64,000 nt of DNA from Thermodesulfobacteriota bacterium (GCA_965204665.1 OZ242002.1:1497995-1561994), one strand, 5' to 3'; numbered from the stretch's first letter, positions 967-56,334 are shown. Notes: a model not told the origin generated them from the letters alone. Translations and numbers: made by a program.

Positions 967-1239
967 TCATCCTCCCGCTATTGCCGGGATGATCGACACA
1001 ACGGCTCCGTCGTTGAGTTTCGTATCCATTCCTTCCAGGAACCTTATGTCTTCGTTGTTCACGTAGACATTTATGAACCTTCTCAGCGACCCGCTGTCAT
1101 CGCAGAGTCTGCTCTTAATCCCGGGGCATTCAGTTTCGAGTTTGTCCACGAGTTCCGATACATCGGCCGCATCTATTTCAACTTCGCCTCTGTCTTTTGA
1201 GAGTTTTCTAAGAGGGGTTGGGATTCTTACCGATACCAT
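967..1239 (-). CDS. MoaD/ThiS-family small sulfur-carrier protein
   Basis: 90 aa protein ending in Gly-Gly (...PAIAGG) with a beta-grasp-like sequence. It lies immediately downstream of the ThrC-family gene on the same strand. Confidence 0.65.
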   Translation of the reverse strand: MVSVRIPTPLRKLSKDRGEVEIDAADVSELVDKLETECPGIKSRLCDDSGSLRRFINVYVNNEDIRFLEGMDTKLNDGAVVSIIPAIAGG

Positions 1240-1309
1240 GTTTTTCTCTCCTTAAAGTTTTATTCTGATCTTTGCCCGACAATTTTTCCGCGGCGGTTCA
1301 GTGTACCAT

Positions 1310-2548
1310 CTAATTTGCCAGTTTTTTATTGTAGAGTTCTTGAAAGTCCTCAATGGTCGGCTCGATTATTTCCGGTTCGTCAAGGCTTGTTGAGACCGCA
1401 TCTTGAGTTTTGAGGCCGTTTCCGGTTATTGAGACCACTATGGGTTCATCACGCGGAATAATGCCGTTGTCTATAAGTTTTTTCGTCGTCCCGAGAGTTA
1501 CTCCACCTGCAGTTTCAGTGTATATTCCTTCTGTTTCCGCAAGGAGTTTTATCGCTTCCACTATTTCCGCATCGCTTACGTCCTCCGCCGCGCCGCCGCT
1601 TTCCCTTATTATGTTCATGGCGTAGTAGCCGTCTGCCGGAGTTCCTATGGCTAGTGATTTCGCTATGGTGTCGGGTTTTACGGGCTTGAACATGTCCCAG
1701 CCGTTTTTAAACGCGGTTGATATGGGTGAACATCCGGTCGCTTGGGCTCCGTATATCCTTGTGCCCTCAGGTTCGACTATTCCCATCATTTCAAACTCCT
1801 GCACCGCTTTCCATATCTTGGTCAGAAGAGATCCGCTTGCCATCGGAACCACTATGTGTTTCGGTGCTCTCCATCCGAGTTGCTCCATTACCTCAAACCC
1901 GAAGGACTTGGATCCCTCAGAATAGTAGGGCCTCATGTTTATGTTCACGAATGCCCAGTTGTATTCGCCAGCAATCTGGCTGCAGAGTCTGTTTACGTCG
2001 TCATAGACGCCTTTCACTCCTATAAGATTCGCTCCGTAGACTACCGTATTGAGTATTTTTGAGCGCTCGAGATCATGGGGGATAAGTATGAAACTTTTGA
2101 GGTTTCCGCTTGCTGAAAGTGATGCCACAGAATTTGCGAGATTTCCTGTGGATGCGCATCCGGTCGTATCAAATCCGAATTCTTTTGCTTTTGAGAGGGC
2201 GACGGATACGACTCTGTCCTTGAAGGAAAGAGTCGGATAGCAGACGGCGTCATTCTTTATATAGATTTCACCGACACCCAAAGATTCTGCAAGATTTGTT
2301 GCTCTTACAAGTGGCGTGTATCCGACTTGAGCACCTATCGCCGGCTCAGAATCAATCGGCAGCAGTTCGGCGTATCTCCATATGTTCTGTGCTCGAGGTG
2401 TTATTTTTTCCCTGGAGAAGTTCTTTTTAATCTCCTCATAATCGTAGGCCACCTCCAGAGGGCCGAAACACATCTCGCATACATGTTTCGGTTCCTTGGG
2501 GTAAAACTCCCCGCACTCCTTGCATTTAAGAGATTTTACAAACCCCAT
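1310..2548 (-). CDS. Threonine synthase-family (fold type II PLP) enzyme with N-terminal Cys4 zinc ribbon
   Basis: PLP-lysine motif SFKDRVVS and an N-terminal CKECG...CEMC ribbon. The likely start is the ATG at 2548 (MGFVKSLK), preceded by GGAGGA. The ORF-track start at 2704 is an upstream extension. Confidence 0.8.
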   Translation of the reverse strand: MGFVKSLKCKECGEFYPKEPKHVCEMCFGPLEVAYDYEEIKKNFSREKITPRAQNIWRYAELLPIDSEPAIGAQVGYTPLVRATNLAESLGVGEIYIKNDAVCYPTLSFKDRVVSVALSKAKEFGFDTTGCASTGNLANSVASLSASGNLKSFILIPHDLERSKILNTVVYGANLIGVKGVYDDVNRLCSQIAGEYNWAFVNINMRPYYSEGSKSFGFEVMEQLGWRAPKHIVVPMASGSLLTKIWKAVQEFEMMGIVEPEGTRIYGAQATGCSPISTAFKNGWDMFKPVKPDTIAKSLAIGTPADGYYAMNIIRESGGAAEDVSDAEIVEAIKLLAETEGIYTETAGGVTLGTTKKLIDNGIIPRDEPIVVSITGNGLKTQDAVSTSLDEPEIIEPTIEDFQELYNKKLAN

Positions 2549-2705
2549 GATTCCTCCGGAAACAATATAAAGAGAAATAAAAATTACCTTAACATGTTTT
2601 GAAGTCAAAGAATTGAGACTTCGAGGCAGCTGCACTGCTGGTGATGACGGTCGCTGAATTTGCCCGCAAAAACAGAAAGCAGTTGTCCAAAGTGCGTTAA
2701 ACATG

Positions 2706-2743
2706 TAACCGTTCAGTCAAGGTGCGACGGATTGGGAAGTTTC
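2706..2743 (+). repeat. Conserved non-coding motif taaccgttcNgtcaaggtg...gattgggaNgtttc, copy A
   Basis: Near-identical to 54562-54599, with a partial copy at 54723-54747. Its reverse complement contains cTTGAC, which is -35-like. Confidence 0.5.
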
Positions 2744-2962
2744 GGCAGTTCCGCGACACGACAGCATAGACTCAGTCCCGAGGGACACCGTACGGCTTCC
2801 CTCAATCGGAACGGGTCGGAACCGCGCAGGGACGCGGACGCTGCGACCGGTACAGTTAATTCCGCAACGACTCGGTGATTATGACAAGGAAGCCGACCTT
2901 AAGGGCCATTGCAACCTAAGTGCCTCTTTCAGGTAAACTTCCGCGTAAAAAGGAGATACCAG

Positions 2963-3754
2963 ATGTATGTACTTAGAGAAAGCGGATTCTCCATACACGG
3001 TTTTAAGGTTGACGGAAGTTCTCGGAACTACAATTATCTTGTCGCCTGCGAGCATACAGGAGAGTGCGTCGTCATAGACCCCCTTGATCCGATAACCTTA
3101 CTTGAGATAATACGCAAAATGGATTACAGGGTCTCGTATGTGGTGAACACGCACGCACACTCAGATCACACGAAGGGAAACGATCCAATAATCAAGGTCT
3201 TTCTCTCATCGAAGATACTCATACACAAAATGGCTCTCGACTACGTTTCTCCCAGAAGTGATGGACTGGATGAGGGAGACGCAATAGATTTTGGAAAACA
3301 GCAATTGCGGGTCATTCACACCCCGGGACATTGTCCGGAGCACATCTCGCTTCTGATAGGGGACAACATTTTTCTGGGTGACACCGTGTTTGTTTCGGGA
3401 TGCGGGAATGTCAAGTTCAGAGGCGATGCGGAAGAACTCTGCCGGACCTTCGAGACAAAAATATCAGAACTTCCCGGGACCCTTCGCATGTTCTGCGGTC
3501 ACGACTACGCGGAAAACAATTTAAATTTTCTGCTTTCCCTCACTCCTGATAACGCGGCTGCGAAAATAAAACTTGCGGAACTTCACGAGAATAAATTTCC
3601 TCGATCAACCCTAGGGGAGGAAAGAAAGTACAATCCGTTTATGAGGACATCTGATCCTGACCTCATTTCTGCGCTTGCAGAAAAAAATCCGTCTATGGGT
3701 GATAATCCGAGAGATGTCTTCATAAAACTGAGAGAACTCAGGGACAGTTGGTAA
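2963..3754 (+). CDS. Metallo-beta-lactamase-fold hydrolase (glyoxalase II-like)
   Basis: THAHSDH metal-binding motif. AAGGAGA lies 6 nt upstream of the ATG at 2963. A 48 bp gap to metH suggests co-transcription. Confidence 0.75.
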   Translation: MYVLRESGFSIHGFKVDGSSRNYNYLVACEHTGECVVIDPLDPITLLEIIRKMDYRVSYVVNTHAHSDHTKGNDPIIKVFLSSKILIHKMALDYVSPRSDGLDEGDAIDFGKQQLRVIHTPGHCPEHISLLIGDNIFLGDTVFVSGCGNVKFRGDAEELCRTFETKISELPGTLRMFCGHDYAENNLNFLLSLTPDNAAAKIKLAELHENKFPRSTLGEERKYNPFMRTSDPDLISALAEKNPSMGDNPRDVFIKLRELRDSW

Positions 3755-3802
3755 AACATCCTTTCCGAATTACGAAAAAACGTTTTTTCAGGTGAAATTG
3801 AA

Positions 3803-6800
3803 ATGAAGACGAATAAAAAAACCAGTTCGTCATATGAGCAACTGAATGCTCTTCTGGATGAGAGAATTCTTTTTCTGGACGGGGCGATGGGAACCATGAT
3901 CCAGCGCCACAAACTTACAGAAGAGCATTTCAGGGGGAAATTGTTTGAGGACCACTCTGTGGACCTGAAGGGGAACAATGATCTGCTTACTCTTACTCAA
4001 CCCGAAATCATATACCAAATCCACACTGCCTACTTTGAGGCGGGCGCTGATATAGTGGAGACGAACACCTTCAGTTCCACTTCAATAGCCCAAGCTGATT
4101 ACGGACTCTCCGACTGGGCTTACAAACTTAATTTCGAGTCCGCCGGAATCGCGAAAAGAGCCGCACGGGACTTTATGGATGAAAACCCTAACAGACAGTG
4201 CTTCGTCGCAGGTTCTCTCGGCCCCACGAATAAGACCGCCTCAATGTCTCCTGATGTAAACGACCCCTCATACAGGTCCATCACGTTCGATGAATTGGTG
4301 AAGGCGTATCGTGAACAGACACAGGCTCTTGTAGAGGGCGGCGCGGACATACTTCTTCCGGAAACTACCTTCGACACCCTGAATCTCAAAGCTGCCGTAT
4401 ATGCGATTGAAGATTTTTTCTCCGATTACGGAGAGAGACTTCCGGTTATGGTCTCCGTAACCATAACGGATCGTTCCGGACGTACGCTTTCAGGTCAGAC
4501 GGTGGAAGCGTTCTGGAATTCGGTACGGCACGCAAAGCCTCTTAGCGTCGGTCTTAACTGCGCTATGGGAGCACGGGATATGCGCCCTTACTTAGAGGAA
4601 ATTTCAAACATCGCGGACTGCAGGGTGAGTTGCTATCCTAATGCCGGGCTTCCGAATCCGCTCAGTGAGACCGGATATGATGAAACTCCTGAAACCACTT
4701 CTGAAATCCTGCTTGATTTCGCCCGAAGCGGTTTTCTCAATATTGTCGGCGGATGCTGCGGCACTACTCCTGACCATATAAGGGCGGTGGTCGAAAGACT
4801 TTCCCCGATAACTCCGAGAGACATCCCGGCAACTAAGAGTCTTACCAGACTCAGTGGACTTGAGCCGCTTAATATATCGGCTTCGGCAGAAGCGCCTTTT
4901 GTATTGATAGGGGAGAGAACCAACGTCACGGGGTCTCCAAAGTTTTCAGAACTGGTGAAGCAGGGAGATTTCGAAGGTGCGGTCTCAGTTGCGTTTCAGC
5001 AGGTTCAGAATGGAGCAAACATAATAGATGTAAATTTCGATGAAGGACTTCTGGATTCAGAAGAATGCATGAAGCGGTTTCTAAATCTTATCGCGTCGGA
5101 GCCTGAAGTGACGAAAGTTCCGATAATGATAGACAGTTCTAAATGGTCCGTCATAGAGCAGGGTCTCAAATGCATACAGGGTAAGTGCATAGTGAATTCC
5201 ATAAGCCTCAAGGAAGGTGAAGAGACGTTCTGCCGGCATGCGCGCTCTGCGATGCGCTATGGTGCGGCTGTTGTTGTGATGGCTTTCGACGAGAAGGGAC
5301 AGGCGGTTGAGAAACAGGAAAAGGTCGACATATGCAGAAGGGCTTACCGAATACTCACGGAAGAAGTCGGAATGGACCCCTGCGACATAATTTTTGATCC
5401 CAATATCCTTACTGTGGGTACCGGTATAGAGGAACATGATCCATACGCGGTGAATTTCATGGAAGCTGTAAGAGAGATAAAGCGGGCTTGTCCTAAATCT
5501 CTTACAAGCGGAGGAGTGAGCAACATATCGTTTGCTTTTAGGGGAAACAACGTGGTGCGTGAAGCCATGCACAGCGCATTTCTGTACCACTCGATAAAAT
5601 GCGGTCTCGACTTGGGAATAGTAAACGCGGGTATGCTGGCTGTCTATGACGATATAGAACCCGAACTGCTCCGCATGGTGGAAGATGTTCTCCTTAACCG
5701 CCGCCCTGACGCGACGGAGAAACTTGTGGAGTATGCAAAGCATTTTGAAGGAGTAAAGACGGGTTCTTCTGAAAGGGACGGCGCCGAGTGGAGAGAGGAA
5801 TCTGTGGAGAAACGCCTTGAGTACTCACTTGTAAACGGCGTAACGGACTTTATAGAGAGCGACACTGAAGAGGCTCGGGCGAAATACGGCAGGCCTCTTG
5901 AGGTCATAGAGGGTCCTCTTATGGATGGCATGAAGGTCGTGGGGGACTTGTTCGGCGACGGCAGAATGTTTCTTCCTCAGGTGGTGAAAAGCGCCAGGGT
6001 GATGAAAAGAGCTGTCGCTTACCTGCAGCCGTTTATGGAGAAAGAAAAAACTACAGGCGGGTCGTCTAAGGGAAAGTTCGTCATAGCTACGGTTAAGGGA
6101 GATGTTCACGATATCGGGAAAAACATCGTGTCAGTAGTTCTGAGTTGCAATAACTACGAGGTTATAGATCTCGGAGTTATGGTTCCATGCGATAGAATTC
6201 TGAATGCGGCGAAGCAGGAATGTGCAGATTTTATAGGTCTGAGCGGACTCATAACGCCGTCTCTTGACGAAATGGTGCATAACGCAGCGCAGATGGAACG
6301 CGAGGGATTTAAAATTCCGCTTCTGATCGGCGGAGCAACAACCAGCAGGGCGCATACTGCGATAAAAATAGCTCCTTTCTACAGGGGTATAGTGGATTAC
6401 ATACCGGATGCGTCTCTTGTGGTTGGGGTGTGTAATCAGATAACGAATCCGGAAAAAATCTCTAATTACAAAAAAAATCTTAAAAAAAGCAACTTTGAGC
6501 AGCAGAAGTTGTTTGAGCAGGCGAAGTCGAAGATAGAATGTCTTTCTCTTGAGGAGGCGAGGAAGAAAGCTTTTTCCACAGACTGGGAAAACACGGAACC
6601 TGATTATCCGGAAAAACTCGGGATTTTCGTATATGACGAAATTGACCTTGCCGAAGTCTCAGAATATATAGACTGGTCTCCGTTTTTTTGGGCGTGGGAA
6701 CTCAAGGGAGTTTTCCCGAAAATCCTTGATCATCCGAAAAGAGGGAAGCAAGCCAGAGAACTTTATCGCGACGGCAAATCGCTTATGGATAGAATAGTCT

Positions 6801-7498
6801 CGGAAAAATTATTTTCGCCCAAAGCGGTTGCAGGAATGTTTCGTGCCAACAGCGTAGTGGATGATGTTGAAATGTACTCGGAGGACGGGAAGCGGGTTGC
6901 CGTATTTCATTTTCTCCGTCAACAGGAAGTTAAAGGGGGGATTCACTACTGTCTGTCTGATTTCGTAGCTCCCGCGGAGCGCGGAAAAAAAGATTATATG
7001 GGATGCTTCGTTGTGACTTCGGGAGATGAGGTGGAAAAATTGTCCGGTGAATTCAAGTCTGCGGGGGATGTCTACAACTCCATTATGATAAGCCTTCTGG
7101 GGGATAGGATAGCGGAAGCACTTGCTGAGATTATCCACAAAAGAATAAGAGACCTGTGGGGTTACGGCAAAAAGGAGAAACTGACACCTTCAGACGTAAT
7201 AAAGGGAAAGTACAGGGGAATAAGACCGGCTCCGGGTTATCCTGCTTGTCCTGATCACACTGAAAAAAATACGCTGTGGAAACTTCTTGACGCTCAGAGG
7301 CACACGGGGGTTTCTCTTACCGAGAGTTTTGCCATGAGTCCTCCAAGTTCCGTATCGGGTTTTTACATTGCGCATCCGCGGTCGCGGTATTTTACGCTCG
7401 GTAGAATAACAAAAGACCAAGTTGTTGATTACGCGAGAAGAAAACAAACGACTTCTGTTTACGTAGAGAAGTGGCTTTCTCCTAATTTAGGGTACTGA
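3803..7498 (+). CDS. metH: Cobalamin-dependent methionine synthase
   Basis: 1231 aa with homocysteine-binding, pterin-binding, B12-binding (GDVHDIGKN, the DxHxxG motif) and AdoMet-activation domains in the canonical order. Confidence 0.95.
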
Positions 7499-7815: not shown

Positions 7816-9255
7816 TCAGTCTACGAACTCATACTTGTTCTGGCTGATTATATTCCCCGCTCGGTCGTTGTTTGCCGAGCCGCTTACTCGTATCTCAACA
7901 ACTTCAACTGCTCCTACGGAAATCTTGCCGGCAGCGTTGGTCAACGCTCTGGCCCCCGCCGCGAAGCCGCTGAACTGAATCTTGTCGTCCGCCAGTGTGA
8001 AGTCCGTAATGATGTCCACACCGCCGTCGGCTTTTCTGATGAGGAAAGTGTCGTTTCCGGCTCCTCCCGTAAGGTTGTCGGCGCCTTCTTCGCCTATGAG
8101 AACATCATTTCCCGCTCCGCCGTTGAGATTGTCTTCGCCTTTACCGCCTCTGAGGGTGTCGTTTCCTCCCCTACCTTCAAGAGTGTCGCCGGCGTTTCCT
8201 CCTGTGAGAGTATTCGCCTTGCTGTCCCCTTTGAAAGTAACAGATGAAATACGAGGAGCGGACCTGAAACTTGCCAGTACGGCTGAAAGGTTCTCGAAGT
8301 TGGACATATTGGAAGTATGAGTGCTGTCTGTAAGATCGAATTCGTTTCTGTGCCCGGTGCCGTCCACCGTGTAGGTGTTGCCTTGGATGAAATACTGACC
8401 TCCGTACACTATAAGAGTATCGTTGCCTTCACCGCCGTCTGCCGTACCTGCAGAGCCGTTAGCAAATTTAAGAGGAGAGGGTTCGATCGTATCATCTCCC
8501 TTGCCGCCTATCAGAGTATCCGCACCGTACCATCCGATCAGAACGTTGTCCCCGTCGTCTCCCGTGATGTGGTCGTCACCTCTGCTGCCCGCAACATCCT
8601 CGATACTCTCAAATGTATCATTCCCGAATGTGGCGTGCGTGAAGGTTTCTGAACTGAGGTCGAAAGTAACAGCCACCTTCCGCGTGTCACTCGATATATT
8701 CCCGCCGAAAGCAGCAGGGGGACCGGAAAAAAATAACATGTCCCGCCCGAGGCCGCCGTTGAACGTGTCGTCTCCCGGGTCCGTAATGAAGAAGAAATCA
8801 GTTCCCCCGCCGCCGTGGAGTTCATCATTTCCGGCGTCACCATAGATATCCTCGCTCCCGTCACCGCCGTAGAGAGTGTCGGTACCTGCTCCACCCCGAA
8901 TATAGTCATCCCCGCCTTCGCCGTAAACAACATCATCACCGTCTCCGGCTCTGATCTCGTTGGTGTCATCATTTCCGCAGATGACGTCGTCATCTGCGGT
9001 TCCCTGAATTAACCGTACGCCTCTCACCGCATTTATACCGTCACTTCTATCGCATCTGGGATCATCGGTCGGTGCCGGGTCCCCGCCCGGGTCACCTTTG
9101 TCCCCCTTATCTCCTTTCGGTCCCGCCACTCCAGGGTCTCCCTTATCTCCTTTTGCCCCGTCTTTCCCTGCCGGACCCATCTCTCCTTCACAGGCGGCAA
9201 GGAAAACCGCTCCGCCGAGCAGAAACAACATCACTAAGAAATTACGTAATCTCAT
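7816..9255 (-). CDS. Lipoprotein with collagen-like Gly-X-Y repeats and RTX (GGxGxD) calcium-binding beta-roll repeats, paralog 1
   Basis: Signal peptide plus lipobox (LAAC), then GPAGKDGAKGDKGDPG...-type triplets, then many GGAGNDTL / GGxGxD nonapeptide repeats. The C-terminal ~230 aa are about 90% identical to paralog 3. GGAGG RBS. Confidence 0.85.
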   Translation of the reverse strand: MRLRNFLVMLFLLGGAVFLAACEGEMGPAGKDGAKGDKGDPGVAGPKGDKGDKGDPGGDPAPTDDPRCDRSDGINAVRGVRLIQGTADDDVICGNDDTNEIRAGDGDDVVYGEGGDDYIRGGAGTDTLYGGDGSEDIYGDAGNDELHGGGGTDFFFITDPGDDTFNGGLGRDMLFFSGPPAAFGGNISSDTRKVAVTFDLSSETFTHATFGNDTFESIEDVAGSRGDDHITGDDGDNVLIGWYGADTLIGGKGDDTIEPSPLKFANGSAGTADGGEGNDTLIVYGGQYFIQGNTYTVDGTGHRNEFDLTDSTHTSNMSNFENLSAVLASFRSAPRISSVTFKGDSKANTLTGGNAGDTLEGRGGNDTLRGGKGEDNLNGGAGNDVLIGEEGADNLTGGAGNDTFLIRKADGGVDIITDFTLADDKIQFSGFAAGARALTNAAGKISVGAVEVVEIRVSGSANNDRAGNIISQNKYEFVD

Positions 9256-18093: not shown

Positions 18094-18171
18094 TGGCGTC
18101 CCCGAGGGGATTTGAACCCCTGTTACCGGCGTGAAAGGCCGATGTCCTAGACCTGACTAGACGACGGGGAC
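18094..18171 (-). tRNA. tRNA-Glu (anticodon TTC), CCA encoded
   Basis: Reverse complement GTCCCCGTCGTCTAGTCAGG...CTTTCAC...GGTTCAAATCCCCTCGGGGACGCCA folds as a cloverleaf. Confidence 0.85.
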
Positions 18172-18182
18172 ATAAAAAGACA

Positions 18183-18255
18183 TGAGCCGTACAGGATTCG
18201 AACCTGTGACCCACTGCTTAAAAGGCAGTTGCTCTACCAGCTGAGCTAACGGCTC
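18183..18255 (-). tRNA. tRNA-Lys (anticodon TTT)
   Basis: Reverse complement GAGCCGTTAGCTCAGCTGGTAGAGC...CTTTTAA...GGTTCGAATCCTGTACGGCTCA. Confidence 0.85.
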
Positions 18256-18532: not shown

Positions 18533-21355
18533 ATGCGCCTGTCGTGGAATGAGGTCCGCATCAGGGCTGCCTCTTTCGCCGAGGAATGGAAGGATGCGAC
18601 CTACGAGAAGGGCGATACACAGAGTTTCTACAACGATTTTTTCGAAGTGTTCGGAGTTCGTCGGCGAAGCATCGCACGCTACGAGGAGCATGTCGCGAAG
18701 TTGAATGACAGCTCCGGATTCATCGACTTATTCTGGCCGGGCGTTCTCATCGTCGAACAAAAGAGCGCCGGGCGCGACCTGAAGGCAGCCTACGAACAGG
18801 CCGGCGAGTATTTCGACGCTTTGTCCGAAAACGAACGCCCGCGCTACATCCTCGTCAGTGACTTCCAGACCTTCGATCTTCACGACCTCGACGAGCGCGG
18901 AAAGGTCTCCTTTCCACTCGCGGACCTGCCCAAGCGTATCGAAGCGTTCAGTTTTATATTGGGTGTGCAGCGCAGGACCTTCCGCGATCAGGACCCGGCG
19001 AACATCGAGGCCGCCGAACTGGTCGGGCTGCTTCACGATGCGCTCGGAGACACCGGGTACAGCGGGCATGACTTGGAGCAGTTCTTGGTGCGGATTGTCT
19101 TCTGCCTGTTTGCCGACGACACGGGTATCTTCGAGCCGCGCGACCTCTTTCTTGATTTCCTTGAAGAACGTACCGGCGAGGACGGGGCAGATCTCGGTCC
19201 GCGACTTGCACAACTGTTCCAGGTCCTGGACACTCCGGAGGTCGAGCGTCAGAGCACGCTCGATGAAGACCTCGCATGTTTTCCTCATGTAAACGGCGAA
19301 CTATTCAAGGGGTCTCTGCGCATTCCGGCGTTTGACTCGGCGATGCGCACTGCACTGCTGAATGCCTGTCGCTTCGACTGGTCGAACATCTCACCCGCAA
19401 TCTTCGGAGCGCTTTTCCAGTCTGTGATGGAACCGGCGGAACGCCGCGCCCGGGGTGCGCATTACACGACCGAAAAGAACATCCTCAAAGTGATCGAACC
19501 ACTTTTCATGGACGGCCTGCGCGCCGAGTTTGAGCGGATCAGGACGCGGCGCGGACGCAACCGTCTCGCCCTGCTTCGTCAATTCCATGCAAGTCTCGGC
19601 AGTCTGACGTTCTTCGACCCCGCGTGCGGTTGCGGCAACTTCCTCATCATAGCCTACCGTGAACTGCGCCTGCTGGAAATCAAGGTCATCCAGGAGATCA
19701 GGAATGCCACCTTCACGACCCGATATAGAGAACTCAATGTCGTCTGGCAATCTGTGGTGGATGTGGACCAGTTCTACGGAATCGAGATCGGAGAGTTCCC
19801 CGTTCGCATAGCTGAAACGGCGCTTTGGATGATGGATCACATCATGAACAACCAGCTGAGTCTTGAGTTCGGCCAGAGTTTTGTTCGTATCCCGCTTGAG
19901 AAGTCGCCGCACATCCTTCACGAGGACGCGCTGGAAGCAGACTGGTCGGACCTGTTGCCGCCGGGCGAGTGCTCCTTCGTACTTGGGAACCCGCCTTTTG
20001 TCGGGGCGAAGTATCAGACACCGGAGCAGCGCGCTCAGGTGCACGGGGTCGCGATGCTGGGCAAGAGCGGCGGCACGCTGGATTATGTCTCCGCATGGTT
20101 CATCAAGGCGGGCGAGTACGTGAAAGGTGAAAATGTCCGCATCGGCTTTGTCGCGACCAATTCGATCACCCAGGGCGAACAGGTCGCGCAGCTCTGGCCG
20201 ATCCTGTTCGAGCGTTGTCGGATGGAAATCGCCTTCGCGCACCGGACCTTCGCTTGGGGGTCGGACGCGCTGGGCAAAGCGCATGTCCATGTCGTCATTC
20301 TCGGCCTTGACCGCCGCGAGGCAGTACCGTCGGATAGGCGTCTGTTCAGTTATCCCGACATAAACGGCGAACCGGAAGAAAGCCGCCACGCTGCGCTGTC
20401 TCCCTATCTTTACGATGCCGCGGGGCTGTCGGACCCGCATCTGACGGTGCGGGAGGAAAACCGGCCGATCAACGGGATGCGGAGACTGATTATCGGTTCC
20501 CAACCCATCGACGGCGGCAACTACATATTCGATGAGCAGGACCGCGCCGCGTTTCTTGATGCGGAGCCGGATGCCTCACCCTATCTTCGACCTTTCATAG
20601 GGGCGAAAGAATACCTACAGGGCGGCAAGCGTTGGATTCTGGCTCTGCACGATGTGCCGCCCGATGCGCTGGCGCGTCTGCCGCGCGTACGCGAGCGGAT
20701 CGTTGCGGTTCAGACCTATCGCCGGAAGAGTAACCGTAAATCGACTCTGAATCTTGCCGAGACTCCTATGCTCTACCAGGTCAATCTTCTTCCCACCGAA
20801 CCGTTTCTGTTGATTCCTCGGGTCAGTTCCGAGCGGCGGGAATATGCGCCCATCGGCTGGCTGGAGCCGCCGGCTATTCCCAGCGATGCCGCGCTTGTGC
20901 TTCCTGAAGCCACCTTGGAGGATTTCGCGCTGTTGACTTCTGCGATGCACATGACGTGGCTGCGCCATGTCGGCGGGAGACTTGAGAGTCGCTACCGCTA
21001 TTCCATCGGCCTTGTGTACAACACTTTCCCGTCGCCTCCTGCAGGCGCGGACCTGTCGAAGTTACGACCCCTGGCGCAAGCCGTGCTCGATGCCCGGGCC
21101 GATCATCCAGGTGCAACACTAGCCCGCCTGTATGATCCCGTCCTTATGCCGCCGAACCTGCGCCGTGCGCATCAAAAACTTGACCGTACGGTGGACCGGC
21201 TCTACCGGCGTACCGGATTCAGGTTCGAGTATGAGCGTGCGGAACATCTGTTCTTACTCTATGAGAAGATGCTCGCACCGCTGCACGCCGGTCGGAAGAA
21301 GACGCGACGGCGCCGACCGGGGAGGGTCGTACCGATGAAAAGAGCGAGTTGCTGA
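18533..21355 (+). CDS. MmeI-family Type IIL restriction-modification enzyme (single-chain endonuclease + gamma-class N6-adenine methyltransferase + TRD)
   Basis: N-terminal D-x9-ExK nuclease motif (IDLFWPGVLIVEQKSAG). MTase motif I FFDPACGCGNFLI and motif IV GNPPFVG. Family blocks NSITQGEQV, GGRLESRYRYS and LVYNTFP. The gene is strongly GC-rich compared with its neighbours. Confidence 0.8.
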   Translation: MRLSWNEVRIRAASFAEEWKDATYEKGDTQSFYNDFFEVFGVRRRSIARYEEHVAKLNDSSGFIDLFWPGVLIVEQKSAGRDLKAAYEQAGEYFDALSENERPRYILVSDFQTFDLHDLDERGKVSFPLADLPKRIEAFSFILGVQRRTFRDQDPANIEAAELVGLLHDALGDTGYSGHDLEQFLVRIVFCLFADDTGIFEPRDLFLDFLEERTGEDGADLGPRLAQLFQVLDTPEVERQSTLDEDLACFPHVNGELFKGSLRIPAFDSAMRTALLNACRFDWSNISPAIFGALFQSVMEPAERRARGAHYTTEKNILKVIEPLFMDGLRAEFERIRTRRGRNRLALLRQFHASLGSLTFFDPACGCGNFLIIAYRELRLLEIKVIQEIRNATFTTRYRELNVVWQSVVDVDQFYGIEIGEFPVRIAETALWMMDHIMNNQLSLEFGQSFVRIPLEKSPHILHEDALEADWSDLLPPGECSFVLGNPPFVGAKYQTPEQRAQVHGVAMLGKSGGTLDYVSAWFIKAGEYVKGENVRIGFVATNSITQGEQVAQLWPILFERCRMEIAFAHRTFAWGSDALGKAHVHVVILGLDRREAVPSDRRLFSYPDINGEPEESRHAALSPYLYDAAGLSDPHLTVREENRPINGMRRLIIGSQPIDGGNYIFDEQDRAAFLDAEPDASPYLRPFIGAKEYLQGGKRWILALHDVPPDALARLPRVRERIVAVQTYRRKSNRKSTLNLAETPMLYQVNLLPTEPFLLIPRVSSERREYAPIGWLEPPAIPSDAALVLPEATLEDFALLTSAMHMTWLRHVGGRLESRYRYSIGLVYNTFPSPPAGADLSKLRPLAQAVLDARADHPGATLARLYDPVLMPPNLRRAHQKLDRTVDRLYRRTGFRFEYERAEHLFLLYEKMLAPLHAGRKKTRRRRPGRVVPMKRASC

Positions 21356-24851: not shown

Positions 24852-25535
24852 ATGAATAACGAGAATCTTCTCAGAGAAGGCGCTCGGCAAATAGGGATAG
24901 AGAACCTTGATACCGATGCGTTTCTTCTTTATATGAGTATGCTGAAACAATGGGGAAGTCGAATCAATCTAAGTTCGGTACTTACGGACAGAGCGATTAT
25001 AATAAGGCACCTTGTCGATTCGCTCACTGCAGCGCGGTTTGTTCCTAAGGGCTCAAGTCTGCTTGACGTAGGTTCCGGGGCCGGGCTTCCCGGTATTCCG
25101 CTTTTTCTTAACGACCCTTCGCTTTCTGTCGTGTTGCTTGAGTCCGTAGGGAAGAAGGTTGCATTTCTTCGGAACGTGAAAAGATCTTTTGGGTTTTCCC
25201 GCTTAGCGGTTCTTTCCGCAAGAGCGGAGCGGGTTGAGGCGGAAATGACGGGAAGCTTCGACCGGGTTATCTTCAGGGCGGTCGGGAGTATAAGTTATAT
25301 TATTTCTCTCGCAACTCCCTATCTGGATATAGAAGGCGAGATCATTATAATGAAGGGGCCTAGGTGGAAAGAGGAGTGGAATGACTATGTGCAAACAACA
25401 AAAAGCCCCGCGGAACTTGTCCGTTCAGAACAGTTCCGGCTACCTTTTTCGGGTGAAGAAAGAGCGATAATAACAGTGGCGCCGCATCGGCGCATGGAGA
25501 AAAATCTTGAAGACCATAGGCGTGATAGGGGGTAG
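24852..25535 (+). CDS. rsmG: 16S rRNA (guanine527-N7)-methyltransferase RsmG/GidB
   Basis: LDVGSGAGLPGIPL motif and family-typical N-terminus. Start chosen at MNNENLL. Confidence 0.8.
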   Translation: MNNENLLREGARQIGIENLDTDAFLLYMSMLKQWGSRINLSSVLTDRAIIIRHLVDSLTAARFVPKGSSLLDVGSGAGLPGIPLFLNDPSLSVVLLESVGKKVAFLRNVKRSFGFSRLAVLSARAERVEAEMTGSFDRVIFRAVGSISYIISLATPYLDIEGEIIIMKGPRWKEEWNDYVQTTKSPAELVRSEQFRLPFSGEERAIITVAPHRRMEKNLEDHRRDRG

Positions 25536-26361
25536 CGGTCTCTATGAGATAGACGGTCTTTCAAACGTAAAGACAGTTTCGGTAGATACTCCGTGGGGTT
25601 CTCCCTCCGCAAGTCTTGTCACGGGAATTTTAGGCTCATCACGGATGGTCTTTCTTCCTAGACACGGGCAAGGACATATAATACCTCCGTCGAAAATAAA
25701 TTTCAGAGCGAACATTTATGCGATGAAGTATATGGGGGTTGAGAGAATAATAGCCGTAAGCGCCGTAGGCAGTATGAAGGAAGAGATAAAGCCCGAAGAT
25801 GTAGTTCTGCCTGATCAATTCATCGATAATACACACGGCCGCGCTTCAACGTTTTTTGAAGACGGGGTGGTGGCTCACGTATCGATGGCGGATCCTGTAT
25901 GCCCCTCTCTCTGCGGTTATCTGAGCCGAATTGCGGTTGACTGCGGTGCTCGGGTTCATCCCAGGGGGACTTATGTCTGCATTGAAGGTCCGCAGTTTTC
26001 TACAAGAGCTGAGAGCGAGTTGTACAGAAAATGGGGAGTGGATGTGATAGGAATGACCGCCATGCCGGAAGTGAAACTTGCTCGGGAAGCTGAAATCTGC
26101 TATTCAACTTTAGCACTTTCAACTGATTACGACTGCTGGAATGATGACCATGAAAACGTTACGGTCTCGGATGTGATAGAGACCATGAACAGAAACGTCG
26201 GTACGGCGAAAAAGATATTGGTTGCGGCTGCCGACTCCATTCCGGAGAAGAGAGACTGCGGATGTGGGGATGCGCTTGCCGCTTCCATTATAACCCCTGC
26301 CGAGCGAATAACTCCGGAAGCAGGAAACAGAGTTGAAATTATCCTGAAAAAATACTTGTAA
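25507..26361 (+). CDS. mtnP: S-methyl-5'-thioadenosine phosphorylase
   Basis: PNP family-2 signature: IGVIGGSGLY, FLPRHG.GH, CIEGPQFSTRAES. Confidence 0.8.
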   Translation: MKTIGVIGGSGLYEIDGLSNVKTVSVDTPWGSPSASLVTGILGSSRMVFLPRHGQGHIIPPSKINFRANIYAMKYMGVERIIAVSAVGSMKEEIKPEDVVLPDQFIDNTHGRASTFFEDGVVAHVSMADPVCPSLCGYLSRIAVDCGARVHPRGTYVCIEGPQFSTRAESELYRKWGVDVIGMTAMPEVKLAREAEICYSTLALSTDYDCWNDDHENVTVSDVIETMNRNVGTAKKILVAAADSIPEKRDCGCGDALAASIITPAERITPEAGNRVEIILKKYL

Positions 26362-26371
26362 TGAGGTTGAA

Positions 26372-27274
26372 ATGAGCATAACTGTTGTCGGTTCGGTGGC
26401 GATAGATACCATAGAGACGCCTTTTGGAAGAGAAGAAAATGTTCTTGGAGGGTCCGCCTGTTATTTTTCGCTTGCGGCGCGGAATTTCACGGATGTTCGT
26501 ATAGTTTCCGCTGTGGGTGAAGATTTTCCCTCAAGTCATATTGAACTGCTTCACTCAAAGGGTGTAAATATCGAGGGACTGAACATAAAACCCGAAGAGA
26601 CTTTCAGATGGGAAGGTAGATACGACTATGATCTCGGGGACCCGGAGACGGTTTCCGTGGCGCTCAACGTTCTCGCGTCCTTTGACCCTGTTCTGCCTGA
26701 AAGTTCCCGGAATTCAGACTACTTATTTCTTGCGAATACGGACCCCGAGATACAGATCAAAGCGCTTGAACAGGTTCGTTCTCCCAAAATGGTGGCCTGC
26801 GACACGATGAATTACTGGATAGAAAACAAACCGGAGCGGTTAAAAGACCTTCTCGGAAAGGTCGATGCGCTTGTAATAAACGACTCCGAGGCCAGACAAC
26901 TTTCACGGGAACCCTTAATGGTGAATGCGGCAAAGCGTATACTGGCTTTGGGTCCTGAATTTCTCGTGATAAAAAGGGGAGAGTACGGAGCCCTTCTTTT
27001 TTCCCGCCAAGAGGTGTTTTTTGCTCCCAGTTACCTGCTTGAGAGAGTTGTTGACCCCACGGGAGCCGGAGATACCTTTGCGGGAGGTTTTATGGGCTAT
27101 ATGGCGGCGCAGCGAGAGGTTCCTGATTTTTCTTCTTTGAAGAAGGGCGTTCTCTACGGGTCTGTTGCAGCCTCGTTTACCGTTGAGGATTTCAGCGTAA
27201 GGAGCATAAGTTCTGTTGATAAAGAACAGATAGAGAACCGGGCGCGGGAGTTTACAAAACTCCTGCAGATCTAG
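26372..27274 (+). CDS. PfkB-family carbohydrate/nucleoside kinase
   Basis: GAGDTFAGGF anion-hole motif. Confidence 0.8.
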   Translation: MSITVVGSVAIDTIETPFGREENVLGGSACYFSLAARNFTDVRIVSAVGEDFPSSHIELLHSKGVNIEGLNIKPEETFRWEGRYDYDLGDPETVSVALNVLASFDPVLPESSRNSDYLFLANTDPEIQIKALEQVRSPKMVACDTMNYWIENKPERLKDLLGKVDALVINDSEARQLSREPLMVNAAKRILALGPEFLVIKRGEYGALLFSRQEVFFAPSYLLERVVDPTGAGDTFAGGFMGYMAAQREVPDFSSLKKGVLYGSVAASFTVEDFSVRSISSVDKEQIENRAREFTKLLQI

Positions 27275-39124: not shown

Positions 39125-40615
39125 TCACGCCGTCTGCGGACCGTAAACACTCCTCCCCGCGCAATACTCCCTGAATTTTTCCACACCCGGGATGTTCAAA
39201 ACCCGGGTCAAGTTGTAAGTCAGCGTCATCAGACTGAACTCTCCCCTGCACTTCTCAAGTCCCCGCATAAGAAACTGATGAAAACCGTTTCCGACCTTCA
39301 ATGTTCCGAACAGATGTTCAACAATTCTCCCCCGCTTCCTGATCTTCTCTTCTCCCTGTTCCATTCTCCGCCTGTGCCTCTCAAGCACTTCATGGTGTTC
39401 CCATCTTTGTATCAATCTGACTTGCTTCTCACCGATACAATGCCTGCGCATCGAACACGCCCTGCAGTCCGCACTTCTGCTTGTATATATAGTGTACCTC
39501 TTCCCATTTCTAACCCTTGGTTTTACGCGGGGGTCAGCCTCCTGCCCTGCGGACAATGATAACAATCCTCTCCGGCATCGTAAGTGAATTCGTCAAGACT
39601 GTAACGCCCCCGTTGTTTCATTCTCGAACTGTTGTCGGGAACAGGAACATAGACTGTAATGTCCTCATCCTCGCACCGCTTCAGTTCCATGCTCTCGTAA
39701 TAACCTCCGTCAGCCAGTCCTGTCAATTGTTCCGTATCAAGACTTTTCTTCGCTTCCGTAAGCATCCCGGCCAGTTGATGGTTGTCCGTGCCGTCCTGAA
39801 CCACATTCTCGGCAACTACAAGCTTGTGCTTCGAATCCACCGCTATCTGCGCGTTGTAACCCGCCACGCTCTGCCCCCGCTTCCTGAGCAGCCTCGCGTC
39901 TTTGTCCACCTTTGACACCTGAGTGTCACCACTTCTCTCCATGCGGTCCTTAGTCTCCCGATTCTCCTTCTGACGCTTCTTCAACTTCTCTATCTTCTCC
40001 CTCAACATCTTGTCGTTGCCCGCATCCTGTCTTCCCGCCTTCTCATCAGCGGCGTCAGCCTCCTCAAGTTCCTGCTGATACTCTTCTATCCTGCTCTCTA
40101 TATTCTCCAATTCCCTGTCTATATACCCTCGGGTCCGTATGCTTGCCCTGCTCGCGTCCGCAGAAAAGAAAGAACCGTCGACCGCCACCTCATCCCCGCC
40201 GAACAGGGATAACTCCCTGCACAGCAGAACAAAATCCCTGTTGACCTTCCTCAGTTGCGCCGCATGGTTCTTGCGGAAATCAGCAATGCTCTTGTAAGAC
40301 GGCCGCATCCCTTTCACCAGCCAAATCACTTCGAGATTCCTTCCGGTCTCCGCTTCCAGCTTGCGGCTGCTGCGTATACCATGCTGATATCCGTAAAGAT
40401 GCAAGCTTCAACATCGCCCACGGATTATAGGGAGGCTGCCCCGCTGTGGTGCCGGCCTCGGTATGCCTGAATCCCATGGAAGACAGATCAAGAGTGTCGA
40501 CGTAGGCATCAAGCGCCCGAACCTGGTGGTTCTCTCCGACATAGTCTTCCACTCTCTCGGGCAGAAGCAGTGTTTGTCCTCGGTCAAGTGCGGGTTTGTA
40601 TCGGCGTCGGTTCAT
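39125..40615 (-). pseudogene. IS1182-family (IS5 superfamily) transposase interrupted by two frameshifts
   Basis: Three consecutive ORFs in different frames together give about 497 aa: InsH-N-like (MLKL...YGYQHGIRSSRKLE), a coiled-coil middle, then a DDE/C-terminal YHCPQGRRLT...C..C..C segment. The shifts are near 40390 and 39540. Confidence 0.75.
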
Positions 40616-40940: not shown

Positions 40941-42257
40941 TCAGTCCACGAATTTATATAGGGTTGACGTACGGATTGAATTTCCTGTGGCGTCATCCTG
41001 CACATCAAATAAATTGTCTGATCCTATAGTGATCGTGCGACCCGATCCTGTCACCGTAGACCCGTTTGGAAAACCTTTGAACTGAAGTATATCGTTCTGA
41101 GAGGCGTTAAAGTCTTTAATATTATCCTTGTTGCTTCTGTGCGCGTACCTGATTTGAAAGGTGTCGGCACCGGCACCGCCCGTAAGAGTATCGGCACCGG
41201 CTTGTCCGTCGATCAGATCATTTCCGCCTCTTCCGTCAAGGGTATCGTTCCCGGCTAACCCGTCTAAATAATTTCCCAGGTTGTCTCCATTAAGAGTATC
41301 ATTTCCGTGTCCACCGAAAAGGTTCTCAATACCTGTAAATGTAATCGATCCTCCTCCATGACCACCGGCGTCAAAAGTCCCCGCGGCAAGATCAACGGTT
41401 CCAGCTGTATTATTTTGTGCGGAACGGATAAAACCATCCTTCACGGCCTGTATTCCCAGGCGGGGATCATCAGTTTGAATGCTCTCTAGGATTATAGCAT
41501 CACCAGTTTGCCGACCATTCCTGACAGCAGTTCCTATCGGGGGGCCGCCGTTAAAGGTGTCGTTGCCTTTACTGTTGACGAGATAAAATATATCTGCCCC
41601 GTCTCCACCGTTGAGCGTATCATTGCCTTCGCCGCCATGGAGAATGTCCCGCCCCGCATCGCCGTTGACCGTATCATCGCCGTCTACTCCCCGGATGAAA
41701 TCAATGCCGTCTCCGCCATGTAGGGTGTTAGCGCCGGCGTTGGCCCAGATGACATCCTCTCCATCTCCGCCATAGATGACGTCATCGGTAGTTTCCGTGC
41801 CTATGCTGCCTGCAACCTGAGCATCGACTTTGTCATCTCCGTCTTCACCGTATATCGTATCCGTGCCGGCACCACCGGCTATCGTGTCGTTTCCGGCACC
41901 ACCGTAAACAGTATCATCTCCGGCTCCGGCACTGATGTTGTTCACGTACTGATTTCCGCAGATGATGTCGTCATCTCCAGTCCCCGTGATATTATTGGAG
42001 ACACCGGGCAGAGCATTTATACCGTTGCTCACGTCGCATCTGGGGTCACCGAAGGATTTTCCCTGATCTCCCTGCGGGCCCGCCGCTCCCTGTGTTCCCG
42101 AGTCTCCTTTATCACCCTTATCTCCTTTCGCCCCGTCTTTACCTGCCGGACCTGTTTCCCCCTTCGGGCCTGCCGGCCCCATATCCCCTTCACAGGCAGC
42201 AAGGAAAACCGCTCCGCCGAGCAGAAACAACAACACTAAGAAATTACGTGACTTCAT
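40941..42257 (-). CDS. Lipoprotein with collagen-like Gly-X-Y repeats and RTX calcium-binding repeats, paralog 2
   Basis: MKSRNFLVLLFLLGGAVFLAACEGDMGPAGPKGETGPAGKDG... followed by GGAGxDT repeats. It is more diverged than paralogs 1 and 3 but has the same architecture and the same C-terminal YKFVD ending. Confidence 0.85.
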   Translation of the reverse strand: MKSRNFLVLLFLLGGAVFLAACEGDMGPAGPKGETGPAGKDGAKGDKGDKGDSGTQGAAGPQGDQGKSFGDPRCDVSNGINALPGVSNNITGTGDDDIICGNQYVNNISAGAGDDTVYGGAGNDTIAGGAGTDTIYGEDGDDKVDAQVAGSIGTETTDDVIYGGDGEDVIWANAGANTLHGGDGIDFIRGVDGDDTVNGDAGRDILHGGEGNDTLNGGDGADIFYLVNSKGNDTFNGGPPIGTAVRNGRQTGDAIILESIQTDDPRLGIQAVKDGFIRSAQNNTAGTVDLAAGTFDAGGHGGGSITFTGIENLFGGHGNDTLNGDNLGNYLDGLAGNDTLDGRGGNDLIDGQAGADTLTGGAGADTFQIRYAHRSNKDNIKDFNASQNDILQFKGFPNGSTVTGSGRTITIGSDNLFDVQDDATGNSIRTSTLYKFVD

Positions 42258-54906: not shown

Positions 54907-56334
54907 ATGAGATTACGTAATTTCTTAGTGATGTTGTTTCTGCTCGGCGGCGCGGTTTTCTTTGCTGCCTGTGAAGGGGATATGGGTCCGGCGGGTCCGA
55001 AAGGAGATAAGGGCGACCCGGGAACACCGGGACCGGCAGGACCTCCAGGAGCACAAGGACCGGCGGGACCCTCGGGCGATGTCTCCGGTGATCCCAGATG
55101 CGATGTAGGTAACGGCATAGATTCGACTAAAGGCCAACGGGTGATCCAGGGAACCGATGGTGACGATGTCATCTGCGGGAATAATACCGTCAACGACATT
55201 AAAGCCGGTGATGGTGACGACATTGTCTACGGTGCAGGAGCCGACGATGATATATACGGTGAGAAAGGTGACGACACTCTCTACGGAGAAAACGGACAGG
55301 ACTTTATTCGGGGTGGAGAAGGTAACGATGTTCTCTACGGTAACGGTGAGAACGACGATGTCTATGGCGGCCCCGGAAATGATAAACTCTACGGCGGAGA
55401 AAGAACTGATTTCTTCTTCATCGCGGACCCGGGAGACGATACGTTCGACGGCGGTCCCGGTCCGGATATGTTAATTTTTTCCGGTCCTACTCCTAATAAC
55501 GGCGGTAATATACCGGAAACCACGCGGAATGTGGCTCTTACTTTCGACCTCCGTTCAAAAACCCACACGCACGCCACGTTCGGGACTGATGCATTTGAGA
55601 GTATCGAGGATATTGCGGGCAGTAGAGGTAACGATCATATTACAGGAGACGACGGGGACAATGTTTTACTGGGATGGTACGGTACGGACACTCTGATAGG
55701 CGGCAAGGGAGATGATACGATCGAACCCTCTCCTCTTAAATTTAATAACGGCTTTGCAGGTACAGCAGACGGCGGTGAAGGCAACGATACTCTTGTAGTG
55801 TACGGAGGTATGTATGTAATCCAGGGCAACACCTACACGGTGGACGGCACCGGGCACAGAAACGAATTCGATCTTGAAGACAGCAGTCATACTTCCACTA
55901 TGTCCAACTTCGAGAACCTTTCAGCCGTACTGAGAAGTTTCAGAACTCCTCGTAGTTCATCTGTTACTTTCAAAGGGGACTCCAAGGCTAATATTCTCAC
56001 GGGCGGAAACGCCGCAGACACTCTTGAAGGTAGAGGAGGGAACGATACTCTGATAGGCGGCAAAGGCGCCGACAACCTTACCGGCGGAGCCGGAAACGAC
56101 ACTTTCCTCATCGGAAAAGCCGACGGCGGTGTGGATATCATTAAGGATTTCACATTGGCGGACGACAAGATTCAGTTCAGCGGCTTCGCAGCGGGGGCCA
56201 GAGCGTTGACCAACGCTGCCGGCAAGATTTCCGTAGGAGGAGTTGAAGTTGTTGAGATACAGGTAAGCAACTCGGCAAACAACGAACTAGCGGGGAATAT
56301 CATCAGCCGGAACAAGTATGAGTTCGTAGACTGA
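54907..56334 (+). CDS. Lipoprotein with collagen-like Gly-X-Y repeats and RTX calcium-binding repeats, paralog 3
   Basis: MRLRNFLVMLFLLGGAVFFAACEGDMGPAGPKGDKGDPGTPGPAGPPGAQGPAGPSG..., then GGxGxD repeats. Its C-terminal region is about 90% identical to paralog 1. Confidence 0.85.
   Translation: MRLRNFLVMLFLLGGAVFFAACEGDMGPAGPKGDKGDPGTPGPAGPPGAQGPAGPSGDVSGDPRCDVGNGIDSTKGQRVIQGTDGDDVICGNNTVNDIKAGDGDDIVYGAGADDDIYGEKGDDTLYGENGQDFIRGGEGNDVLYGNGENDDVYGGPGNDKLYGGERTDFFFIADPGDDTFDGGPGPDMLIFSGPTPNNGGNIPETTRNVALTFDLRSKTHTHATFGTDAFESIEDIAGSRGNDHITGDDGDNVLLGWYGTDTLIGGKGDDTIEPSPLKFNNGFAGTADGGEGNDTLVVYGGMYVIQGNTYTVDGTGHRNEFDLEDSSHTSTMSNFENLSAVLRSFRTPRSSSVTFKGDSKANILTGGNAADTLEGRGGNDTLIGGKGADNLTGGAGNDTFLIGKADGGVDIIKDFTLADDKIQFSGFAAGARALTNAAGKISVGGVEVVEIQVSNSANNELAGNIISRNKYEFVD

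Follow-up and report, generated by a model that had tools for sequence, protein, structure and literature searches.

We have analysed a stretch of 64,000 nucleotides from a Thermodesulfobacteriota bacterium (GCA_965204665.1 OZ242002.1:1497995-1561994; hereafter the window), in which a gene of the threonine synthase (ThrC) family (1310-2548, minus strand) is followed by the gene of a small sulfur carrier (967-1239, minus strand). We propose that this pair is very probably a thiocarboxylate-dependent homocysteine synthase of the MetM/MetO type, known from Streptomyces albulus, in its Dadabacteria version, feeding the methionine synthase MetH that is encoded nearby. The initial annotation of this DNA had suggested that the ThrC homolog forms homocysteine from O-phosphohomoserine and the carrier thiocarboxylate, and our results are consistent with that suggestion: the enzyme falls into a clade separate from canonical ThrC in 99 of 100 bootstraps, a carrier homolog accompanies it in 73 of 80 related loci, an S-adenosylmethionine (SAM) riboswitch precedes its gene in 33 of the 80, and in three loci a canonical thrC is found beside the pair. 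The proposed chemistry has already been published for MetM/MetO, and the window pair is a further, misannotated case of it, not a new system.

Results

The enzyme is a fold-type II pyridoxal 5'-phosphate (PLP) protein of 412 aa, and we regard it as a MetM-like homocysteine synthase candidate. It matches Pfam PALP (4.2e-64) and the thrC model TIGR00260, and its PLP lysine, K110 (2221-2219), lies in the SFKDR motif and is invariant in the alignments. The mechanical open reading frame (ORF) extends to 2704, and the start at 2548 is favoured by homologs of 408–412 aa. As the initial annotation had read it, the protein begins with a Cys4 ribbon (C9, C12, C24 and C27), all four cysteines of which are invariant in an alignment of 30 sequences. 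Since the solved ThrCs align to the window enzyme from residue 56 onward only (scores of 160–190 bits), the ribbon is an N-terminal addition, and it lies in an extension of about 55 aa (2384-2548, minus strand).

Five canonical ThrCs (Aquifex 2zsj, B. subtilis 6cgq and three paralogs from related loci) are 31–35% identical to the window enzyme, the value for B. subtilis ThrC being 34%, and 83 relatives of the carrier-linked clade are 47–84% identical to it. The relatives at 82–84% identity are named Candidatus Dadabacteria, and the homologs are publicly annotated as threonine synthase. In a neighbour-joining tree (408 columns, 100 bootstraps), the window protein, every carrier- or riboswitch-linked relative and nine intermediate representatives form one clade at 99/100, while the canonical ThrCs form a separate group at 100/100. 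The phylogenetic check that had been called for thus places the ThrC homolog outside canonical ThrC and within the MoaD-linked clade.

At about 20 positions the clade has a fixed residue other than the one shared by at least four of the five canonical ThrCs compared; in the window enzyme these positions read V113, V114, L137, A138, E161, N186, C189, N204, R206, Y209, A237, K244, A268, S298, A300, D306, G307, G348, G349 and T381. The replacements (window numbering, canonical residues in brackets) include V113 V114 (GM), L137 A138 (TS of STGNTS), R206 and Y209 (N and R of NPYR), A300 (R), D306 G307 (SW) and G348 G349 (SA), so that from canonical ThrC to the clade STGN-TS becomes STGN-LA, NPYR becomes RPYY and R...SW becomes A...DG; K110 and the core motifs are retained. 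Several of the replaced positions would, by the ThrC crystal structures, line the sites for the substrate carboxylate and phosphate, and replacements there would fit a changed reaction. With the canonical substrate-loop residues missing and a place outside the canonical group, the window enzyme is predicted not to be a canonical threonine synthase.

One representative protein, P0247 (411 aa), has the Cys4 ribbon but the signature of canonical ThrC, in whose group it also falls in the tree (100/100). The ribbon was therefore rejected as a diagnostic of the clade, and the zinc ribbon either predates the MetM-like specialisation or is independent of it.

The carrier, of 90 aa and MetO-like, belongs to the ThiS/MoaD/CysO family, and its C-terminus (...SIIPAIAGG) is encoded with the Gly-Gly end already mature. 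It matches Pfam ThiS over residues 4–90 (1.3e-15). Among solved structures it is most similar to 4n6e_B (9e-19) and M. tuberculosis CysO (3dwg_C, 5.5e-16), the alignment being full-length in both cases, and among sulfur carriers it is closest to the CysO type. The possibility named at the outset, that this small ORF might be without the β-grasp fold, is answered by these alignments, in which it appears as a full-length homolog of solved β-grasp carriers. A prediction by AlphaFold from the single carrier sequence gave a predicted local distance difference test score (pLDDT) of 45 and was discarded, and the fold assignment rests on homology to the solved structures.

The position of the carrier gene is as first described, directly 3' of the ThrC-family gene and co-oriented with it, the two being separated by a spacer of 70 nt (1240-1309, minus strand). 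A ribosome-binding site, AAGGAG, is present at 1253-1248, 8 nt 5' of the carrier ATG, and no terminator-like site was found on the minus strand of the spacer; the enzyme and carrier genes are likely to be co-transcribed.

How widespread is this arrangement? One scan of species-representative genomes gave 80 loci whose enzymes are 55–74% identical to that of the window, and which are spread over no fewer than 15 phyla, among them Thermodesulfobacteriota, Nitrospinota, Nitrospirota, Planctomycetota, Verrucomicrobiota, Acidobacteriota, Cyanobacteriota, Chloroflexota, Actinomycetota and Aquificota. In 73 of them a carrier homolog follows the enzyme gene on the same strand, and in 70 its end is no more than 1.2 kb from the enzyme stop codon; because the pair recurs in this way its arrangement is not due to chance. 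As in the window, 48 of the carriers of related loci end exactly in Gly-Gly; about 20 bear a tail of 1–6 residues after it. Clustering of the neighbours showed a ThiF-family E1 gene nearby in 21 of the 80 loci, for the most part immediately behind the carrier gene; eight loci have a class-V aminotransferase (cysteine-desulfurase-like) and five a Prok-JAB protease. Carrier, ThiF E1, JAB and class-V aminotransferase make up a complete kit for the production of a protein thiocarboxylate.

In three loci, the gene downstream of the ThrC-like gene codes for a fusion (L007 9288-9803, L012 3326-3856 and L023 6334-6906), built of a MoaD-like domain, an internal ...PAIAGG and then a NIL domain (PF09383, 5e-10). 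Elsewhere, the NIL domain is a known part of MetN and of the homocysteine route of methanogens. Since genes for ThiF and Prok-JAB are also close by in L007 and L012, the JAB protease may cut the fusion at the Gly-Gly.

A nearby carrier is absent from seven of the 80 loci, five of which have the riboswitch. Similarly, in L004 (Micromonospora coriariae) and L005 (Actinoplanes derwentensis) there is a MetM-like gene under SAM-riboswitch control with no adjacent carrier, so that these two must either share a carrier or have its gene at another site.

A short canonical thrC, with the STGNTS, NPYR and SW signature, directly follows the pair in two Thermodesulfovibrio-type loci (L019 1948-3018 and L027 1974-3101), and another is present 6.4 kb from the pair in the Nostoc locus L077 (15659-16750). 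Because a canonical thrC coexists with it, the clade is a paralog of thrC and not its replacement, at least in these three loci.

The regulation of the genes gives a second line of evidence. Rfam identified RF00162, the SAM riboswitch, immediately 5' of the enzyme gene in two Micromonosporaceae loci (69–73 bits), in seven of 11 further loci and in all eight loci that had been preselected by hits of our own model, that is, in a total of 17 (56–92 bits), 15 of which are among the 80 loci and the other two the Micromonosporaceae loci. Our own SAM covariance model, built from nine of the Rfam RF00162 hits, found a SAM-I riboswitch in 33 of the 80 loci, in every case 5' of the enzyme gene and on its coding strand; 28 of the 80 have both riboswitch and carrier. 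A "threonine synthase" that is repressed by SAM can be understood only as an enzyme of the methionine pathway. In an acidobacterial locus (L038 6737-6810), a borderline match to the SAM-II riboswitch RF00521 (37.5 bits, cut-off 36 bits) was also seen, 1.2 kb upstream of the MetM-like gene and with a short-chain dehydrogenase/reductase (SDR) gene in between.

The short proximal leader of the enzyme gene in the window (2549-2614, minus strand, 66 nt) is shared with the Dadabacteria relative L001, and it contains a GGAGG (2557-2553) and a -35-like TTGACT (2608-2603) that may be a promoter element, although the consensus scan did not call it. Some 240 nt of the divergent intergenic region (2725-2962), with a G+C content of up to 70%, are absent from L001, have no Rfam match and are not repeated elsewhere in the window.

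Upstream of the pair, and divergent from it as the initial annotation had stated, are the genes of a metallo-β-lactamase (MBL) hydrolase (2963-3754, plus strand, 263 aa) and of MetH, the cobalamin-dependent methionine synthase that consumes homocysteine (3803-7498, plus strand, 1231 aa); we measure the gap between the enzyme and MBL genes as 414 nt (2549-2962), and the MBL gene lies 48 nt upstream of metH. MetH is full-length, with 1951 bits on NF007024 (cut-off 1497) and all five Pfam domains. The MBL hydrolase carries Lactamase_B and HAGH_C domains and the metal-ligand motifs THAHSDH, HTPGH, GDT and CGHDY; its closest solved relatives are the glyoxalase II structures 1xm8 and 1qh3 (about 1e-33), and on the GloB model TIGR03413 it scores 168.2 bits, below the cut-off of 200.8. 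The divergent position of both genes is kept in L001 (Dadabacteria, 85% identical) and in L002/L006 (a Thermodesulfobacteriota metagenome-assembled genome, 74%), and no homolog of MBL or metH was found near the pair among the other 79 genome loci. The linkage of metH and MBL to the pair is thus specific to this lineage. The link with metH is functionally sensible and the MBL hydrolase is tied to the pathway by position alone; with no homolog near the pair in those 79 loci, we do not favour it as a pathway component.

The remainder of the window consists, according to Pfam scans, of housekeeping genes and a few mobile or defence genes, and neither a second ThrC nor a second carrier was found among its six-frame ORFs of at least 40 aa. 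Proteins with RTX calcium-binding repeats are encoded at 7816-9255 (minus strand), 40941-42257 (minus strand) and 54907-56334 (plus strand), and in two of the three a signal-like start is followed by an N-terminal stretch of collagen-like Gly-X-Y. A complete single-chain restriction-modification enzyme of the MmeI type, with all five MmeI domains, is encoded at 18533-21355 (plus strand), just after two tRNA genes (18097-18255), and a DDE transposase (DUF772 and DDE_Tnp_1) at 39523-40404 (minus strand), adjoining an ORF of 170 aa. A PNP_UDP_1 phosphorylase gene is followed by that of a PfkB kinase (25507-27274, plus strand), a pair that could serve the salvage of methylthioadenosine or nucleosides.

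Discussion

We propose that an E1-like enzyme, with its gene in another part of the genome, would adenylate the carrier at its C-terminal Gly-Gly, after which the carrier would be converted to a thiocarboxylate. The ThrC-family enzyme would bind O-phospho-L-homoserine on K110 and eliminate the phosphate, and the carrier thiocarboxylate would be added at the γ carbon, in contrast to canonical ThrC, which adds water at the β carbon. Homocysteine would then be released from the acyl adduct, and the divergently encoded MetH would methylate it to methionine. We infer the activity of the window orthologue, the location of its E1 and the mode of homocysteine release.

Several observations weigh against this proposal. 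The enzyme passes the NCBI thrC equivalog TIGR00260 with 279.6 bits (cut-off 167.1). No SAM riboswitch was found in the window by Rfam at gathering score over its whole length, by an E-value scan of 2400-3900 or by our own SAM model, in agreement with the initial annotation, which had seen none in the 2549-2962 leader; by our own model none was found in the two closest relatives of the window (L001 and L006) either. E1 (ThiF), JAB/JAMM and rhodanese genes were likewise not found in the window, where the searches for ThiF, JAB, ThrC and MoaD covered six-frame ORFs of at least 40 aa together with Pfam scans, so that the initial reading of the window as devoid of an E1-like MoeB/ThiF gene stands. 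The link to the characterised MetM of S. albulus is indirect, and the function proposed for this lineage rests on sequence and gene context. Furthermore, the homolog from Microcystis is reported to be weakly active as a threonine synthase and as a threonine deaminase, and in vivo it did not clearly act as a MetM (PMC12172450).

The pass on the thrC model does not discriminate, since members of the clade that are linked to riboswitches pass too. TIGR00260 passes all three other clade members that we scored, of which two belong to actinomycete loci under riboswitch control, and it gives the MetM-like protein of Nostoc 336 bits, as high as the 333 bits of a canonical ThrC. The model appears to span two functions.

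In Dadabacteria and the related Thermodesulfobacteriota lineage, where no riboswitch, E1 or JAMM gene is present at the locus, the pathway might be wired differently. It could depart from the Streptomyces model in one of two ways: the conserved glyoxalase-II-type thioesterase encoded between the pair and metH could release homocysteine from a carrier–homocysteine thioester, in place of the JAMM hydrolase, or the enzyme could be the sole ThrC homolog and make both threonine and homocysteine. We consider such a departure very unlikely.

Also very unlikely is a bifunctional or moonlighting enzyme which, as the only ThrC homolog of a small genome, would make (or deaminate) threonine in addition to making homocysteine, as proposed for Microcystis. 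The weak activities of the cyanobacterial homolog (PMC12172450) speak for it, as do the small genome, with a contig of 1.98 Mb, and the search of the window, in which no second ThrC was found. Against it, the clade coexists with canonical thrC in Nostoc and Thermodesulfovibrio, and the canonical motifs that differ are predicted to lie in the substrate loops of ThrC.

Could the enzyme be an ordinary threonine synthase with a zinc ribbon, and its MoaD-like neighbour serve molybdopterin or other sulfur chemistry? The score on TIGR00260, the annotation of the homologs as threonine synthase, the lack of a second thrC within the window and the existence of P0247, in which ribbon and canonical signature are combined, would agree with this, and yet we hold it to be very improbable. 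An ordinary ThrC does not account for the SAM riboswitches upstream of its relatives, nor for a carrier near which genes for E1, JAB and cysteine-desulfurase-like proteins are found and not those for MoaE or MoaA. Canonical thrC paralogs occur beside the pair, the clade is separated from canonical ThrC at 99/100, the canonical T137, S138, R209, R300 and W307 are replaced, and the thrC model passes the riboswitch-linked members as well.

A cysteine route like that of CysO/CysM, in which a ThrC-family enzyme would make cysteine from O-phosphoserine and the carrier thiocarboxylate, might be argued from the closeness of the carrier to M. tuberculosis CysO, from the existence of cysteate synthase, a ThrC relative that uses O-phosphoserine, and from a weak similarity to the latter (TIGR03844, 59.5 bits), but it too has very little probability, as the SAM riboswitches indicate methionine, metH adjoins the pair, NIL fusions occur in three loci, the published activity of MetM is on O-phosphohomoserine, and the cysteate synthase score is far under the cut-off of 324.9, with a similarity to cysteine synthase of 38 bits.

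What does the MetM/MetO-type assignment mean in practice? These data leave the known biochemistry unchanged, and their practical value lies in annotation: they provide a residue signature that separates the clade from canonical ThrC, for a pair that is seen in at least 15 phyla, and the SAM riboswitches are independent regulatory evidence that the clade serves methionine synthesis. Automated annotation cannot separate MetM-like proteins from ThrC, because the NCBI thrC model passes the clade members scored, and genomes such as that of the window are consequently read as having a threonine synthase and lacking a homocysteine route. This leads to false calls of methionine auxotrophy and possibly to false calls of threonine prototrophy.

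Comparison with known systems

With canonical ThrC (Aquifex 2zsj, B. subtilis 6cgq and T. thermophilus 1uim), the window enzyme shares the fold, the lysine motif SFKDR and the class of substrate. It differs in the additional Cys4 ribbon, in the replacement of the TS, NPYR, R..SW and SA residues, and in its regulatory and gene context.

The route of methanogens and Desulfovibrio, attributed to Rauch et al. in 2014 and Price et al. in 2018, is said to use COG1900 and NIL-ferredoxin proteins. It resembles the proposed pathway as an alternative homocysteine synthesis of anaerobes, and the NIL domain is fused to the carrier in three of the related loci; its enzymes, in contrast, are unrelated to those discussed here, and none is present in the window. 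In Wolinella succinogenes, homocysteine is reportedly formed from a protein thiocarboxylate by the HcyS-HcyF-HcyD-MetY system (Krishnamoorthy and Begley, 2011), in which MetY, a fold-type I enzyme of the Cys_Met_Meta_PP family, acts on O-acetylhomoserine. The formation of homocysteine from a protein thiocarboxylate would be common to both systems, whereas no MetY-type gene is found beside the window carrier.

The CysO-CysM-Mec+ system of M. tuberculosis, reportedly the work of Burns et al. in 2005, is said to use a carrier thiocarboxylate as the sulfur donor and CysM, of the O-acetylserine sulfhydrylase (OASS) type, to convert O-phosphoserine to cysteine. Common features are the delivery of a thiocarboxylate to a fold-type II PLP enzyme that acts on an O-phospho amino acid and the match of the window carrier to CysO. 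Unlike CysM, however, the partner in the window is of the ThrC type and not of the OASS type, and its context indicates methionine. A literature search on the amino-acid metabolism of Dadabacteria returned nothing relevant.

The closest known system is MetM/MetO. In S. albulus, the ThrC homolog MetM, with the carrier MetO, uses O-phospho-L-homoserine and MetO-thiocarboxylate to make homocysteine, as that work is relayed in a later source (Hasebe et al. 2024, AEM 90:e01247-24, via 10.1101/2024.10.14.618325). MetM is often misannotated as threonine synthase, and GapMind includes the pathway with MetO, Mec, MoeZ and MetM, Mec being needed to mature S. albulus MetO (10.1101/2024.10.14.618325). A SAM riboswitch is located upstream of S. 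albulus metM and none in Microcystis, whose homolog is 51.6% identical to MetM and has an adjacent metO-like gene (PMC12172450). The cyanobacterial loci that we fetched, Microcystis not among them, are 56–60% identical to the window enzyme. B. subtilis ThrC is 33% identical to MetM (10.64898/2026.09.15.751699), which matches its 34% identity to the window enzyme.

A bridge to the actinomycete system is provided by Nonomuraea gerenzanensis, in which a SAM riboswitch (3843-3984), the enzyme gene (3995-5233) and the gene of a carrier ending in AGG (5258-5533) follow one another, enzyme and carrier being 50% and 51% identical to those of the window. This locus came from a tblastn search of plasmids, which also gave haloarchaeal thrC genes at 32–35% identity. 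Its order agrees with the description of the S. albulus metM locus given in PMC12172450, and this anchors the clade of the window enzyme to the actinomycete system. A second homolog search, started from a Micromonosporaceae member, returned Micromonosporaceae only and no Streptomyces members.

The window pair and MetM/MetO are thus alike in having a ThrC-homologous PLP enzyme and an adjacent carrier of the ThiS/MoaD type, with the same proposed chemistry, and the window enzyme shares a clade with the actinomycete loci ordered as riboswitch, enzyme and carrier. They differ in that the window comes from a member of the Dadabacteria and is without the SAM riboswitch, an accessory and not a defining feature, and without a nearby E1 or JAMM gene, and in that its pair diverges from a glyoxalase-II-like gene and metH. 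The window carrier, encoded with its Gly-Gly end, would need no Mec-type trimming, whereas S. albulus MetO does, at least as the relayed account of that work has it. The chain that leads from the window pair to MetM/MetO through the Nonomuraea and Microcystis homologs is indirect, but it appears strong.

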